64,000 nucleotides of DNA, taken from a virus (lineage: Duplodnaviria > Caudoviricetes). The notes under the pieces are model-generated. The model saw only the letters and a program-made list of their open reading frames with translations. It was not told where the DNA came from and searched no databases. The position numbers and the translations under genes are program-made. This document shows, one piece after another, positions 4,375 to 31,212 of this stretch (positions are counted from its first letter, which is position 1; each line of letters opens with the position of its first letter). The stretch covers positions 1 to 64,000 of IMG/VR virus record IMGVR_UViG_3300006056_000027. The stretch is one strand, 5' to 3'.

Positions 4375-4623
4375 GTGAACTTTATTATGAAATTTATTGC
4401 TAAACTGTTTAGCAAACCTTCTGCACCATTGACTATCAATGATGTCGTATCTCAATTTTCTAAGATGATTAAAGATCTTAATACCATTGCAGACAATCAA
4501 CGTGCTTCCATTACTTCTTGTGATTTAAGTATTCAAGCGCTTGAAGTGAGAAAAGCTAACAATTAGGTTGAACTTAATCGTGCAACCGCTATTGCTGAAA
4601 AAATCAATAACATTATTGAATAA
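4375..4623 (+). CDS. Coiled-coil hypothetical protein, probable TAG readthrough at 4564-4566
   Basis: After the TAG the frame continues as amphipathic VELNRATAIAEKINNIIE to TAA 4621-4623. Confidence 0.45.
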
Positions 4624-6248: not shown

Positions 6249-6536
6249 ATGGATATTATGCGTCTTAATATTCCACGTGATCAAAAGAAAACGGTTCGTT
6301 ATTTCAATCCTCCTCGTGGATGGGCTACTGACAATGTTGTAGTAGGCGAAAGAGCTGTTGTTTATACTATTGATCATCCATCACCATTTGTAACGAATGG
6401 ACAAGCATGTTACACATCTCCAGTTGTTTCTTACAATAAAGACACTGATGAGATTGAGACAGTATTCACTATTTATATTCGCATCAGAGACAATGATGAA
6501 CAAATAGATTCAACCAAAACTAGTCGTAATAACTAG
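6249..6536 (+). CDS. Hypothetical protein
   Basis: 95 aa ORF; C-terminus resembles that of ORF 10560..10784. Confidence 0.55.
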   Translation: MDIMRLNIPRDQKKTVRYFNPPRGWATDNVVVGERAVVYTIDHPSPFVTNGQACYTSPVVSYNKDTDEIETVFTIYIRIRDNDEQIDSTKTSRNN

Positions 6537-6852
6537 AAATGATTTAAGTGCTGGTTATCAATCAGTACAACCAGCTCATGCTGTAGCGCAATTTGCTGTA
6601 GACCATTATGATACTTTTAAGAAATGGGATGCAGAATCTAAGTATATTATTATTTTATCTGCTAATGATTTAGAGCATCTAAATAAACAGATAAATAAGA
6701 TAAACCATCTTAATGTTGATTTTTCGGTATTCAATGAACCCGATATACAAAATCAAACAACAGCAGTATGTTTTTATGCAGAGACTGATAAAGCAATTAA
6801 AATGTTTTCTCATTTACCTCTGGCATTAAAGAATTATAGGTCATTGGTGTAA
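6493..6852 (+). CDS. Pth2-like peptidyl-tRNA hydrolase with in-frame TAG at codon 5
   Basis: MMNK*IQPKLVVITRNDLSAGYQSVQPAHA...FNEPDIQNQTTAVC...FSHLPL matches the Pth2 pattern; missed by the ORF track because of TAG 6505-6507. Confidence 0.75.
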
Positions 6853-6911
6853 TGAAAGCACAGCACCCTTTGACGGTGTTAGTTGAGGTTTGAGTCCTTG
6901 ATGGCCTACCA
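6838..6911 (+). tRNA. tRNA-Gln(TTG)
   Basis: Cloverleaf, loop CTTTGAC, CCA end; overlaps the Pth2-like stop codon. Confidence 0.88.
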
Positions 6912-6929
6912 TAATTAAATTAAAACAAT

Positions 6930-7017
6930 GCGGACGTAGCCCAGCGGTCGAAGGCACTGGATTGCAAATCCAATTAGAGAAATCTACGCGTCTGTTCGAA
7001 TCAGACCGTCCGTTCCA
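6930..7017 (+). tRNA. tRNA-Cys(GCA), long variable arm
   Basis: Loop TTGCAAA, U73-CCA. Confidence 0.88.
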
Positions 7018-7042
7018 TATTTAAAATATTTAGAGATTTAAA

Positions 7043-7309
7043 ATGACATAGATTCATCATATAGATTCAATAGTTCCTATTGTATTCCATTATAATAAAC
7101 AGCATAATATTGATTCAGCAATTCCTCCTTGGGTTGTTAAAGCAAAAGGTGAAACACATTATGTTAACCATATAGATGTTGATAAAGGGATTGGCTTCTC
7201 AACTCGTGAGACACCTGATAATCCACATACTAAGGCTAGTTTAAAATTCAAAGGCAAATTAACTATTGAAAAACAAAATGATGAAATCATTGCCAAGATT
7301 TATTTGTAA
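7043..7309 (+). CDS. Hypothetical protein with in-frame TAG at codon 3
   Basis: ATG ACA TAG ATT followed by 85 sense codons (IHHIDSIVPIVFHYNK...RETPDNPHTKASLKFKG...) with no other ATG; SD-like AGAG upstream. Confidence 0.65.
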
Positions 7310-7326
7310 ATGTATTAGGTATTAAT

Positions 7327-7473
7327 ATGAAAAAGAAGAAACCAAAGCTTGTAAAGTTTAATCCTGTCGCTATGCATCAACTGATAAACAGAGGTGGTAG
7401 ACATGGGCCAACTGGCAAAGCTATTCGTCGTCAACAAAAAGTTGACATTCAAAAAAATATTGATACAATATAA
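7327..7473 (+). CDS. Small basic protein (48 aa)
   Basis: MKKKKPKLVKFNPVA...; SD AGGT upstream. Confidence 0.5.
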   Translation: MKKKKPKLVKFNPVAMHQLINRGGRHGPTGKAIRRQQKVDIQKNIDTI

Positions 7474-7500
7474 AAATTACATAGCGTAAAGCTATAAACC

Positions 7501-7591
7501 GAACATGTGTTTGTTGCAATAGATGCGGGTTACTTCTTTCTTTTGATGAAAAACCAAATATCCTGCGTCAATCTTTATCTCTTACACATTC
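7501..7591 (+). ncRNA. Y RNA-like element (Ro-binding module only, non-permuted)
   Basis: ATGTGT/ACACAT and GATGCGGG/CCTGCGTC stems with the GTTGCAA...GTTACTTC motif shared with the chimeras. Confidence 0.7.
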
Positions 7592-7619
7592 TTATTCCTT
7601 TCCTCCTTGGATTTATATC

Positions 7620-7784
7620 ATGAGAATCTTAGCATTAATTGCTACCATTATTTTATTAATAATCCTTTGTTGGATGTTGTTCCATACTTTGTTATTTCCA
7701 TTAGCTAAGTTTGTATTCATCATTGTCTTACTCTATATGTTTGTTAAGACTTTTAAATACGCTTACTATGGTAAAGCAATTTAG
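7620..7784 (+). CDS. Small membrane protein
   Basis: 54 aa, almost wholly hydrophobic. Confidence 0.45.
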   Translation: MRILALIATIILLIILCWMLFHTLLFPLAKFVFIIVLLYMFVKTFKYAYYGKAI

Positions 7785-7789
7785 TTTTT

Positions 7790-7875
7790 GGGTGTGCGCC
7801 AGAGCGGGAGAGCTGGGGCGGACTGTAAATCCGTTGTCTTCGACTGAATAGGTTCGAATCCTATGACACCCACCA
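7790..7875 (+). tRNA. tRNA-Tyr(GTA)
   Basis: Loop CTGTAAA, variable arm, CCA. Confidence 0.92.
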
Positions 7876-7880
7876 AATAT

Positions 7881-7957
7881 CCCGAATTAGCTTAGCTGGT
7901 CTAAAGCTGCCCCCTCTAAAAGGGCCATCACAGGTTCGAATCCTGTATTCGGGACCA
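7881..7957 (+). tRNA. Amber suppressor tRNA (anticodon CTA)
   Basis: CCCGAAT/ATTCGGG-A-CCA; anticodon loop CT-CTA-AA (7914-7920); canonical T arm. Confidence 0.88.
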
Positions 7958-7967
7958 ATTTTTTAAC

Positions 7968-8051
7968 GGTACAGTTCCCGAGCGGTCAAAGGGAATGTCT
8001 TGATAAGGCATCACGAAAGTTTCGCAGGTTCAAATCCTGCCTGTACCACCA
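7968..8051 (+). tRNA. tRNA-Ile(GAT), extended variable arm
   Basis: Loop TTGATAA, CCA. Confidence 0.88.
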
Positions 8052-8722: not shown

Positions 8723-8807
8723 TGCGGTGTGTCAGAAGTCTGGTATCTGGGAGGGCTCATAACCCTCTGCGTAAGCCTCGTGGGTTCGAATCCCACCTCC
8801 GCTACCA
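8723..8807 (+). tRNA. tRNA-Met(CAT), initiator-like
   Basis: Three G-C pairs closing loop CTCATAA; unpaired 1:72; CCA. Confidence 0.85.
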
Positions 8808-11317: not shown

Positions 11318-11393
11318 GGGAATGTAGTTTAGTCGGTTAAAATACAGGATAATAATCCAGGAGCCAGTGGTTCGAATCCACTCTTTCCCACCA
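11318..11393 (+). tRNA. tRNA-like gene, undetermined anticodon (6-nt loop)
   Basis: Good D and T arms and CCA; anticodon loop TAATAA. Confidence 0.65.
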
Positions 11394-11397
11394 TAAT

Positions 11398-11473
11398 GAT
11401 TGAGTAGCTTAGCAGGTAGAGCAAAGGTGGTTATACATCTTCTGCGCTGGTTCGATCCCAGCCTCTTTCGCCA
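11398..11473 (+). tRNA. tRNA-like gene, undetermined anticodon (6-nt loop)
   Basis: D and T arms, CCA; loop GTTATA; two acceptor mismatches. Confidence 0.6.
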
Positions 11474-11706
11474 ATTTTAATCGTAAGTGCTCCCAAGGGT
11501 AAAAGGAATCCCCGTTCATATAAATATCTTATGTCAGGCTGTAATGACAGGACACAGAGAACAGCTACGATTAAATCAACTTAAAAACAGAAGGTAATAT
11601 AGAATGTCAAAAACAGCTAGTGGTATTAGTGGCTACGTTTATACAGCTAAAAGTATTGGTGATTCATTTCAACCATTTTATCGGTTTACTCAGAAATAAA
11701 AGAATT

Positions 11707-11776
11707 CGGAAGGTAGCTCAGTTGGTAGAGCGGGACATAGCAGTCCGCGTCGATGGTTCGAATCTATCCCTTCCGA
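11707..11776 (+). tRNA. tRNA-like gene, shortened anticodon arm
   Basis: Canonical TAGCTCAGTTGGTAGAGC D arm and T arm; GGAC-ATAGCA-GTCC anticodon arm; no CCA. Confidence 0.6.
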
Positions 11777-11786
11777 CAAATTAAAT

Positions 11787-19597: not shown

Positions 19598-19813
19598 CAT
19601 TAAATTGCTAGGATTGGCGTATCACCCAACCTAGTGTATGGTAAAGTATTTAGCTATTAGCTTTATATGGATACTGTTGATACAAAATATAAACGCCCTT
19701 CAATACCGACTTCTGGTGTTTATATTAATGATGAAGTCTGTTTAGTAGTACGCATATGTGCTGGTGAACAAATGGCATTCATCCCCAAAGAGCAATCTGT
19801 AAGGAGGAACCAA

Positions 19814-20164
19814 ATGATTAAATCGGCACTTTTGTGTCTAGCTCTGACAATATACCACGAATCTCGTGGAGAGCCTGTATCTGGCCAATATGCTGTTGCT
19901 GAAGTAGTAGTCAATAGATCTCAAGAAAGAAACCTTTCTATATGTGATGTTGTCTATGAAAAGAATCAGTTTAGCTGGGTTAAAGCTCATAATAGTATTC
20001 CATCAAATGAAGTATTTAATAAATCACTTCAGATTGCCGATGATGTTTTGAATAAAGGATCAGTTACTAATTATAGTAAGGGTTCTAATTATTTTAAACA
20101 ATCGCGTCTTGCGAATAGTAAGAATAATATTAAGGCAAGAATAGGCGGTCATATATTTTACTAG
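19814..20164 (+). CDS. Cell wall hydrolase (SleB/Hydrolase_2)
   Basis: CLALTIYHESRGE...AVAEVVVNR...QFSW...IGGHIFY; SD AAGGAGG. Confidence 0.88.
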   Translation: MIKSALLCLALTIYHESRGEPVSGQYAVAEVVVNRSQERNLSICDVVYEKNQFSWVKAHNSIPSNEVFNKSLQIADDVLNKGSVTNYSKGSNYFKQSRLANSKNNIKARIGGHIFY

Positions 20165-21220: not shown

Positions 21221-21307
21221 GCTCGTGTCGTCTAGCGGTCCAGGACAACGCCCTTTCAAGGCGTGGTGTTTATCACCTCGTGGGTTCAAATCCCATCACG
21301 AGTACCA
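21221..21307 (+). tRNA. tRNA-Glu(TTC), long variable arm
   Basis: Loop CTTTCAA, GGTG/CACC extra stem, CCA. Confidence 0.88.
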
Positions 21308-29668: not shown

Positions 29669-30244
29669 ATGAAACATTTGGCAGGTCACGATCATGTAAT
29701 GATTGATTGTGAAACACTAGATATAACTAATTCACCAGTTGTATTTTCACTCTCAGCAATAAAATTTGATATTGATTCGGTAAATGAAAAAGAAGAATTT
29801 GATGCTAATAACTTAAATCATTTTCACATAGCTTTAAAATTTGATGATCAGATTAAAAAAGGTTTTGATGTTGGATCTTCAGCATTAGCCTTTCACTTAA
29901 AAACTTGTCCAGCTTATCTATTGAATTGTATTAACGGATCAGATATTCGATTAGTTGATACAGCAACTGGCCTAATGATGTTTACAGAATTTGTAAAGGA
30001 TTTTAATAATCCAATGTTCTGGACTGCAGGGGCAATCAATGATCATGTATGGATAGACAATTTATATACAGCGTATGGTTTAAGAAATCCTATGCCATAC
30101 AATAAAAGATTTTGTTTTAGAACTATTAGAGAAGCCTTTCACGGTATGAGTCCGCGTTATGTTAATGATCATAATTCGTTTAGTGACTCTGTGAATCAGG
30201 CTATTGCGTTACAACAAATCTATAAAGGAGTTGTTGGCGAATGA
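29669..30244 (+). CDS. DEDDh 3'-5' exonuclease
   Basis: VMIDCETL...NDHVWI...HNSFSDS. Confidence 0.8.
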   Translation: MKHLAGHDHVMIDCETLDITNSPVVFSLSAIKFDIDSVNEKEEFDANNLNHFHIALKFDDQIKKGFDVGSSALAFHLKTCPAYLLNCINGSDIRLVDTATGLMMFTEFVKDFNNPMFWTAGAINDHVWIDNLYTAYGLRNPMPYNKRFCFRTIREAFHGMSPRYVNDHNSFSDSVNQAIALQQIYKGVVGE

Positions 30245-31212
30245 AAGAATATATTGATTTATCAAATAGAATTTTAGAATTTGGCGAAGTAAGACAAGAC
30301 AGAACTGGTGTTGGTACTGTTAGCTTATTTGGCGAAAAAATGGTTTTTGATTTACTTGATGGCTTTACTGCTGTAACAACTAAATTAGTTTACTGTAAAA
30401 CAGCTATTAAGGAAGGGCTATGGATCTGTAGTGGATCTACTAGTAACCTAGACTTAAAAGCACAAAAGGTTTCTATATGGGATGAATGGGCTTTACCTAA
30501 TGGTGAGCTTGGACCTATATATGGGAAACAGTTAAGAGATTTTAATGGTGTTGATCAATTGGCTATGCTTGTTGAAGGATTAAAAAATAAACCTTTTTCG
30601 CGTAGACATATTATTTCCTATTGGAATCCAGAAGTATTACCATTTGAAAACTTAAGTCCACAAGACAATGTAGAGTTGGGATTGCAAGCGTTACCACCTT
30701 GTCATGCCTTTGCTCAATGGTATGTTTCAAATGCTGATAATTATGACAGAGTTCGTTATATGCATTATCTCAATGTTATTGAGCGCATACAAATGACTGA
30801 TGAAGAATTGTTCTTATCGCATAATCAGGAAAATTATAATACAGGCAAGATGAACCAGATTCTTGATAACTATAAGATTCCAAAACTTAAACTAAGTTGC
30901 CAGTTGTATCAGAGATCGGCCGACGTCGTACTCGGTATTCCGTTCAACTTAGTAATGTACCCAATGTTGACTATGATGCTGGCTCAACAATGTGGGTTTA
31001 TACATGGTATGTATCATCATGTTATTGGTGATGCTCATGTTTATTTAAATCATGTCGAAGCATTCAAAGAACAATTATCTCGTGATCCTTATCCTAGACC
31101 GATATTAAAGATAAACAATTTAGTTGAATCTGTTTTTGATTATAAAGCAGATGACTTTGAGCTGATCGACTATCAGCATCATGAACCTATCTCGTATGCA
31201 GTTGCAACGTAG
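30241..31212 (+). CDS. thyA: Thymidylate synthase
   Basis: DRTGVGT, LPPCH, QRSAD, PFN, GDAHVY. Confidence 0.96.
   Translation: MKEYIDLSNRILEFGEVRQDRTGVGTVSLFGEKMVFDLLDGFTAVTTKLVYCKTAIKEGLWICSGSTSNLDLKAQKVSIWDEWALPNGELGPIYGKQLRDFNGVDQLAMLVEGLKNKPFSRRHIISYWNPEVLPFENLSPQDNVELGLQALPPCHAFAQWYVSNADNYDRVRYMHYLNVIERIQMTDEELFLSHNQENYNTGKMNQILDNYKIPKLKLSCQLYQRSADVVLGIPFNLVMYPMLTMMLAQQCGFIHGMYHHVIGDAHVYLNHVEAFKEQLSRDPYPRPILKINNLVESVFDYKADDFELIDYQHHEPISYAVAT

Follow-up and report, generated by a model that had tools for sequence, protein, structure and literature searches.

Several groups of phages bring their own tRNA(CUA) into hosts that use the standard genetic code, and the in-frame TAG codons of their genes depend on it. 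In these code-15 phages (crAss-like phages, Lak phages and others), tRNA-dependent reading of TAG has been proposed as a means of post-transcriptional control (10.1101/2021.08.26.457843; PMC10879173; PMC9523058), and the literature describes genome-scale recoding of late genes (10.1101/2021.08.26.457843; PMC10879173). Here we analyse a locus in the virus record IMGVR_UViG_3300006056_000027 (Duplodnaviria; Caudoviricetes), a single contig of 120,647 bp with 35% G+C, the initial 64 kb of which form the stretch under study (the window). Two small neighbouring genes, one encoding a protein related to peptidyl-tRNA hydrolase 2 (Pth2-like) and the other belonging to an unnamed phage family (88 codons), each carry an in-frame TAG just after the start, and a tRNA(CUA) is encoded downstream (Table 1). 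We propose that both genes are very probably gated by the balance between this suppressor tRNA and release factor 1 (RF1), and that a suppressor-tRNA cassette is a likely explanation of the locus as a whole.

The arrangement departs from that of code-15 phages in several ways: only 2 of about 138 genes are concerned, the TAG always lies in the first few codons, TAG still ends ordinary genes, and the gated genes belong to two small translation-linked families and not to the structural or lysis genes. Another point of comparison is prfB, the gene for release factor 2 (RF2), in which an early in-frame UGA is passed by a +1 frameshift and the product acts directly on that stop. As in prfB, an early in-frame stop (TAG at codon 4 or 5) lies in a translation-related gene, the Pth2-like gene, and the yield would report how the stop is decoded; unlike in prfB, passage would be in-frame read-through by a dedicated tRNA, with a change of frame only in the variant L108 described below. 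Synthetic amber-gated circuits (for example, PMC7969014) similarly use a suppressor tRNA as input and an early amber codon in the target, whereas the arrangement seen here is natural, widely conserved and directed at targets linked to tRNA biology. The jumbo phage XacN1 is alike in having the standard code, tRNA(CUA) genes and a Pth-like gene; its authors considered read-through of terminal TAGs and identified no target genes for the two tRNA(CUA) (PMC5852040). A full-text literature search returned no publication that describes early-TAG gated genes beside suppressor tRNAs, and the word 'hydrolase' is absent from both the Borges preprint (10.1101/2021.08.26.457843) and the theta-ribozyme paper (PMC10879173). 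The comparisons below support the view that a natural leader-gated cassette in otherwise standard-code genomes represents a new form of suppressor-tRNA-dependent recoding.

Two small genes with early TAG codons

The initial annotation had reported two early TAGs in the same context, no alternative start near either gene beginning and a well-formed tRNA(CUA) close by, and all of these observations were reproduced. The leaders read ATG ATG AAC AAA TAG ATT (6493–6510) in the Pth2-like gene and ATG ACA TAG ATT (7043–7054) in the 88-codon gene, and the earliest ATG, GTG or TTG past the TAG is found only at codon 98 of 114 in the former and at codon 84 of 85 in the latter. The tRNA(CUA) matches Rfam RF00005 over model positions 1–71 (57.3 bits, E = 3.6e-11), which makes it the highest scoring of the five tRNAs in this stretch, and it is the only CUA tRNA of the genome. 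With CUA at positions 34–36, a cloverleaf, a regular anticodon loop, and an intact acceptor stem and 3' end, it has the structure of a functional elongator suppressor tRNA; its one irregularity is a C–A mismatch at pair 31–39, at the base of the anticodon stem. The acceptor stem (C1–G72, with A73) and body are close to no typed tRNA, and the nearest typed tRNAs gave no consistent amino-acid identity for the suppressor.

The Pth2-like protein matches PF01981 (E = 8.4e-7; 29.6 bits, with a cut-off of 23), residues 9–108 aligning with profile positions 2–112 of 115, and also phrog_1866 (E = 4.9e-15). A profile of its family finds the solved Pth2 chains 2zv3 of M. jannaschii (E = 1.8e-7) and 1q7s (E = 5.6e-5). 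In the phages pT24, Xoo-sp13 and XacN1, the Pth2-like domain is fused to a domain with an H-D-x-G-K motif, which is a candidate HD-like domain from the motif alone.

The 88-amino-acid protein has no family match in Pfam or PHROG, and all 74 of its database relatives are unnamed. Its family conserves the motifs FH[FY]NK and ETPDNPHTK, and an AlphaFold2 model is all-beta and confident (predicted local distance difference test score, pLDDT, 92.7). Searches with this model returned no Foldseek match in the PDB at E ≤ 0.001, nothing convincing in a wide VIA-align comparison (best Z 3.6) and only uncharacterised phage proteins in BFVD. Longer forms of the family add a C-terminal domain with a ferredoxin/RRM/ACT-like fold, the best match of which is the tRNA-binding tail domain of the A. 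fulgidus CCA-adding enzyme (borderline Z of 7.9; root-mean-square deviation of 2.9 over 87 residues). We considered a CCA-adding-enzyme-like function for this domain and set it aside, the match being too weak for an assignment. Taken together, the two gated proteins point to tRNA-end biology, with the 88-amino-acid family as a probable RNA-binding partner. This family is nearly absent from 185,579 prokaryote genomes, in which it occurs on only five contigs of metagenome-assembled genomes (three of the five with a tRNA(CUA)), and this scarcity points to a phage-specific family.

Outside these two genes, the genome uses the standard code and TAG is a real stop, because TAG ends conserved genes at full profile length and reading it as sense adds very little coding sequence. 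The gene thyA (30241–31212; PF00303, profile positions 1–265 of 266) and a cell-wall hydrolase gene (19667–20164; PF07486, 100 of 100 positions) both end with TAG, as do about 18 of 138 crude gene calls across the genome. Coverage by open reading frames (ORFs) rises from 0.91 under the standard code to 0.93 with TAG as sense; this falls short of the code-15 criterion for genomes larger than 100 kb, a coding density at least 5% higher with TAG as sense, and lies below the 5–10% range of recoded phages (PMC10879173). Code-15 phages have TAGs across a large share of their genes, mainly structural and lysis genes, and encode a tRNA(CUA); here the tRNA is present and the TAGs are confined to two genes, with no other gene in the whole 120.6-kb genome in which an internal TAG joins two substantial pieces. 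The absence of wholesale recoding proposed in the initial annotation was therefore upheld.

Distribution and variants among phages

To compare relatives without presupposing a leader, we scanned IMG/VR with a profile and search patterns taken from the body of the Pth2-like protein. Of the 80 loci returned, 78 begin with ATG, one to seven codons and a TAG; one of the two others is cut by a contig end and the second is L108. After redundancy removal at 90% identity, which defines the lineages counted here, 34 of 37 Pth2-like lineages are gated. A tRNA(CUA) was found in 67 of the 80 loci, on the same strand in every case, and in many loci the early-TAG Pth2-like gene stands directly upstream of a gene of the 88-amino-acid family. 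In the 34 gated lineages, the gating TAG is followed by A (30 lineages) or G (4 lineages). A purine after an amber codon is a favourable suppression context in E. coli; the preference seen here fits this context and could also reflect a conserved isoleucine.

A scan of IMG/VR with the 88-amino-acid protein returned 41 loci, most of them with ATG, zero to four codons, TAG and then the conserved body. The tRNA(CUA) of these loci shares the strand of the gene, at distances of 12 nt to about 3.4 kb that mostly do not exceed 1 kb. Of 45 lineages of this family (90% identity), 26 have an early and 2 an internal TAG; 37 carry a tRNA(CUA), which in 31 of them is no more than 1 kb away. Across both families the leader stop is TAG throughout the amber-gated lineages tallied, and more than 100 distant phage sequences share the early UAG in these small genes.

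Some relatives carry the TAG deeper in the protein. In L023 and L024, the gene of the 88-amino-acid family has a normal ATG start and a TAG 16–17 codons in, after the invariant FH[FY]NK, so that the TAG must be translated for the domain to form. L046 and L078 have a second TAG inside the Pth2-like domain. The same TAG leader is found in the huge uncultured phages LR745206, LR756504, LR756500 and LR756501, the last with an additional TAG within the Pth2-like domain. On this sequence evidence, UAG must be decoded in lineages with internal TAGs.

The cassette also occurs in cultured phages. Tenacibaculum phage pT24 has the TAG leader, with a tRNA-Sup 2.5 kb upstream, and the annotated coding sequence BPT24_235 (L047:4947–5900) starts internally, leaving the gene truncated in the public annotation. 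Rhizobium phage RHph_I1_18 (L001:3001–3249) carries an unannotated copy of the 88-amino-acid family gene with TAG at codon 6, ending 12 nt before a tRNA(CUA). The truncation in pT24 and the omission in RHph_I1_18 are explained by the early TAG. In Xanthomonas phage XacN1 (ORF364; L143:900–1000) and in Xoo-sp13 (gene 327; L049:900–1000), a Shine–Dalgarno (SD) motif is followed after 8–9 nt by ATG AAG (AAG) TAG and then A, and this leader lies 4–5 codons upstream of the annotated ATG of the Pth2-like fusion. The XacN1 leader is a candidate target of the XacN1 tRNA(CUA) genes, in an arrangement that the downstream ATG makes ambiguous. Homologs of the Vibrio PVA8 type have no gate and no nearby tRNA.

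In one variant, the leader stop is not TAG. L108 (4858–5341 of IMGVR_UViG_3300033066_002046, also found as L137 and L144) has ATG, six codons, TGA-A and then the Pth2-like body in the +1 frame. Encoded 27 nt upstream is a tRNA whose anticodon loop has 8 nt and whose four-base anticodon, UUCA, pairs with UGAA; decoding of UGAA as a single codon yields the full-length protein (P0077). The nearest relative, L138, uses TAG and a tRNA(CUA), and thus the leader codon changes with the neighbouring tRNA. Frameshift-suppressor tRNAs of the sufD/sufJ type, with 8-nt anticodon loops, arose as laboratory suppressors; the L108 tRNA shares the 8-nt loop and differs in adjoining a gene that needs exactly a UGAA step. 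L108 therefore looks like a natural four-base codon–tRNA pair, in a single case: two further scans for relatives of this variant returned no second one. As a separate observation on L138 (2917–2991), the final A of the 3' CCA of its tRNA(CUA) is also the A of the gated Pth2-like ATG (ATG GCT TAG ATT), so that the tRNA is physically joined to the gated mRNA.

Probable read-through and competing explanations

SD motifs (for example, AGGAG) are found 5–10 nt before the leader ATG in at least 12 loci, and on this basis we take the ATG to be the translation start. Ribosomes would begin at the ATG of each gene and reach the UAG after 2–4 codons. Without charged tRNA(CUA), RF1 would terminate and only a tiny peptide would be made; with the phage tRNA(CUA), encoded on the same strand 0.6–1.4 kb downstream, the UAG would be decoded as an amino acid, giving the complete protein. 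RF1 and the charged tRNA would thus compete at the UAG, and the yield of both proteins would track suppressor activity. At the N terminus any inserted residue would be tolerated and failed attempts would be cheap; such indifference to the residue fits the unrelated bodies of the CUA tRNAs from different loci. A suppressor-dependent switch, as put forward in the initial annotation, is supported by the conserved gate, the linked tRNA(CUA) and the internal TAGs.

Several points weigh against this reading. Within the single genome, the two gated frames are the sole long start-less frames once shadows of genes in other frames or on the other strand are excluded, and in first-order Markov simulations of 120 kb such frames averaged 0.23 per run, with two or more in 5 of 100 runs; the pattern is thus only modestly unlikely by chance (about p = 0.05 by simulation), and the case therefore rests on the comparison with other phages. 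Among the roughly 18 TAG-ended genes, back-up stops are not significantly enriched (three or fewer codons of extension in 50%, compared with 36% for genes ending with TAA or TGA). A strong suppressor of general action would thus be expected to carry a cost, and weak or context-limited read-through is favoured. The CUA tRNA bodies are mutually unrelated among loci, and gating of the two genes by tRNA(CUA), with the expression and charging of this tRNA, is predicted from sequence. Seventeen lineages of the 88-amino-acid family have no gate, and Atu_ph07, in which a domain of this family ends a longer protein, has neither gate nor suppressor tRNA. Lak phages keep the Pth2-like gene near a tRNA(UUA) and are not clearly gated; we rejected them as gated examples, because Lak-B5 has ATG AAT ATC TAA ATA near the tRNA(UUA) but Lak-A1 lacks a leader stop. 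In mycobacteriophage IkeLoa (Bixzunavirus; L051:1440–1510), the start annotated for the peptidyl-tRNA hydrolase is a GTG that comes immediately after ATG TAG, and a tRNA(CUA) follows 250 nt downstream. Here the SD is spaced for the GTG, and the arrangement may represent a relic or variant form of the gate.

The activity of the Pth2-like protein is likewise uncertain. In Pth2 proteins, a GxGK loop ahead of the conserved AQ..HA helix bears the catalytic lysine, and the acidic residue of an R-D-A-G motif is the catalytic aspartate. In the alignment with 2zv3, 1q7s and 1rzw, the canonical GK loop was not found and a two-residue gap falls there; the phage proteins have G-Y, S-V, A-Y and similar pairs at this site, with no conserved lysine. 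The R-D-A-G site aligns with an invariant E-P-D triplet (E82, P83 and D84), the invariant glutamate lying opposite the aspartate, so that an acidic residue is kept and the motif differs. Given this gap and the replacement of R-D-A-G by E-P-D, the chemistry may differ from that of Pth2.

Among the other explanations, the most serious accepts the gate and gives it a different use, as a timer or AND-gate that licenses or delays proteins that would do harm or no good before an intact tRNA cluster is expressed, with products that need not act on the suppressor or its by-products. The comparative evidence for gating applies to this explanation equally, and recoded phages have been proposed to time their late genes in a similar way (10.1101/2021.08.26.457843). 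The tRNAs could also be timed separately, from a promoter-like site that lies downstream of both gated genes and just upstream of the tRNA-Tyr/tRNA(CUA)/tRNA(GAU) cluster; this site is a consensus match only, of a kind no commoner in the region than in shuffled sequences. A timer leaves unexplained that gating recurs in the same two families from phage to phage and spares late or lysis genes, and that the Pth2-like gene adjoins suppressor tRNAs even where it is ungated (in Lak phages with tRNA(UUA), and in IkeLoa). The restricted gating and this adjacency suggest a functional tie to the suppressor itself, and we regard the timer as unlikely, while giving it more weight than any of the other alternatives. 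Early drift of TAG into sense use (code 15), with its position carrying no regulatory meaning, has far less in its favour. The low G+C content and the phage tRNA(CUA) fit a proposed path to recoding, and Q is listed at the TAG position in some relatives (P0003, P0004, P0016 and P0063), probably through code-15 gene calls. Drift nevertheless fails to explain why dozens of lineages have TAGs at codons 2–8 of the same two families and at no other site, and it sits poorly with the small gain in ORF coverage and with the genes, thyA among them, that end with TAG; we consider it improbable.

Equally slim is the prospect that no read-through occurs, the ATG–TAG forming a mini upstream ORF with translation (re)starting at the next codon, an ATT as in AUU starts of the infC type. 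ATT, ATA or ATC does follow the TAG in 25 of 34 Pth2-like and 15 of 26 88-amino-acid-family lineages, and the frequent ATT could serve as a weak start, a further point against read-through; the GTG of IkeLoa, with its well-placed SD, also fits. Set against this, the SD motifs suit the upstream ATG and lie 12–25 nt from the post-TAG codon, which in other lineages can be AAC, AAA, AAT, AAG, ACA, ACT, GTA, GTT, GTC, CAA or CCC. This codon begins with a purine in nearly every case. Neither a ribosome-binding site placed for AUU nor conservation of a start-like codon was found. A restart is also at odds with a leader stop that is always TAG, with the linked tRNA(CUA), with the TAGs within conserved domains in four lineages (L023, L024, L046 and L078) and with the pairing of UGAA and a UUCA tRNA in L108. 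Initiation at ATT, which the initial annotation had named as a refuting outcome, is thus contradicted by the SD placement, the non-start codons and the in-domain TAGs. The same holds for its other refuting outcome, isolated errors or mutations, as the homolog comparison that it had called for found the early TAG kept in most lineages of both families. Pseudogenes or sequencing errors would account for a premature stop in each gene under the standard code and for gene callers skipping or truncating them. However, the bodies are intact and conserved, with a confidently predicted fold in the 88-amino-acid protein, and the 'defect' is found again, at an unchanged position, in independent assemblies and in cultured phages, which leaves this explanation with a negligible probability.

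If gating by the suppressor tRNA is accepted, its purpose is less clear. The gate may match the dose of the Pth2-like tRNA-end enzyme and its 88-amino-acid partner to suppressor activity, a proposal to which we give slightly less than an even chance; proteins dosed in this way would clear by-products of read-through or restrain the suppressor itself. A feedback loop of the RF2 kind, as the initial annotation suggested, would have the Pth2-like product influence read-through in turn; such a loop is plausible, its one line of support being the tight linkage to suppressor tRNAs. More tentatively still, and with doubt greater than that attached to dose matching, the cassette could be a self-contained read-through homeostat. 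The leader stop would sense the suppressor, the Pth2-like enzyme and its partner would act on the tRNA or its peptidyl-tRNAs, and read-through would be held at a set level. Lock (the leader codon) and key (the anticodon) would co-evolve, even to four bases as in the UGAA/UUCA pair of L108, and the suppressor tRNAs of standard-code jumbo and T4-like phages, for long unexplained 'orphans', would gain a target and a role.

Many large standard-code phages carry amber-suppressor tRNAs without a known purpose, and the cassette supplies concrete and widely conserved targets for them. It offers a natural counterpart of synthetic amber-gated switches and may represent a minimal first step towards full stop-codon recoding. 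Gene callers miss or truncate the gated genes, and therefore the 88-amino-acid family has no Pfam or PHROG entry and the RHph_I1_18 and pT24 copies lack an annotation or have a misplaced start; for annotation pipelines, leaders of ATG, a few codons and a stop beside suppressor tRNAs are worth seeking. Cultured carriers are available in Rhizobium phage RHph_I1_18, Tenacibaculum phage pT24 and, as a candidate, Xanthomonas phage XacN1.

Features around the two genes

Table 1. Positions of the putatively gated genes, the tRNA(CUA) and nearby features in the window.
Feature	Position	Strand	Description
Pth2-like gene	6493–6852	+	Leader ATG ATG AAC AAA, putative gating TAG, 114-codon body, TAA at 6850–6852
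Putative gating UAG no. 1	6505–6507	+	Codon 5 (codon 4 if the second ATG starts); next base A; next codon ATT
88-codon gene, unnamed phage family	7043–7309	+	ATG ACA, putative gating TAG, 85-codon body, TAA at 7307–7309
Putative gating UAG no. 2	7049–7051	+	Codon 3; next base A; next codon ATT
tRNA(CUA), predicted amber suppressor	7881–7957	+	77 nt, 7-nt anticodon loop, encoded CCA; ARAGORN
tRNA-Tyr(GUA)	7790–7875	+	ARAGORN and Rfam; 5 nt upstream of the suppressor tRNA
tRNA-Gln(UUG)	6838–6911	+	ARAGORN; Rfam 49.9 bits; first 15 nt shared with the end of the Pth2-like frame, TAA included
tRNA, anticodon GCA, long variable arm	6930–7017	+	Between the two gated genes; ARAGORN; Rfam 51.4 bits
Sigma-70-type promoter match	7442–7469	+	TTGACA, 16 nt, TACAAT, with TG before the second hexamer; 11 of 12 positions

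The plus strand is densely coding, and ARAGORN lists 19 tRNA or tRNA-like genes in the window. Given the overlap between the tRNA-Gln and the end of the Pth2-like frame, processing of the 5' end of this tRNA would cut the mRNA ahead of the stop codon. A DNA similarity search of the region against phage records gave tRNA matches only, and in the loci examined the cassette is not accompanied by the neighbouring ORFs (those at 6249, 7327, 7620 and other positions). The ORF directly after the second gated gene (7327–7473) encodes a very basic protein of 48 amino acids; it is not conserved with the cassette and has no family match in Pfam or PHROG. Another ORF, at 4375–4623, runs for 63 codons to TAG-G and then for 18 more open codons to TAA, and no homologs of it were found in the loci examined.

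The tRNAs with anticodons GCA, GAU, CAU and UUC (6930–7017, 7968–8051, 8723–8807, 21221–21307 and 11318–11777) are 84–88 nt long and have long variable arms, which are unusual for Cys, Ile, Met and Glu tRNAs. Three of the tRNA-like genes that ARAGORN reports in the window have 6-nt anticodon loops.

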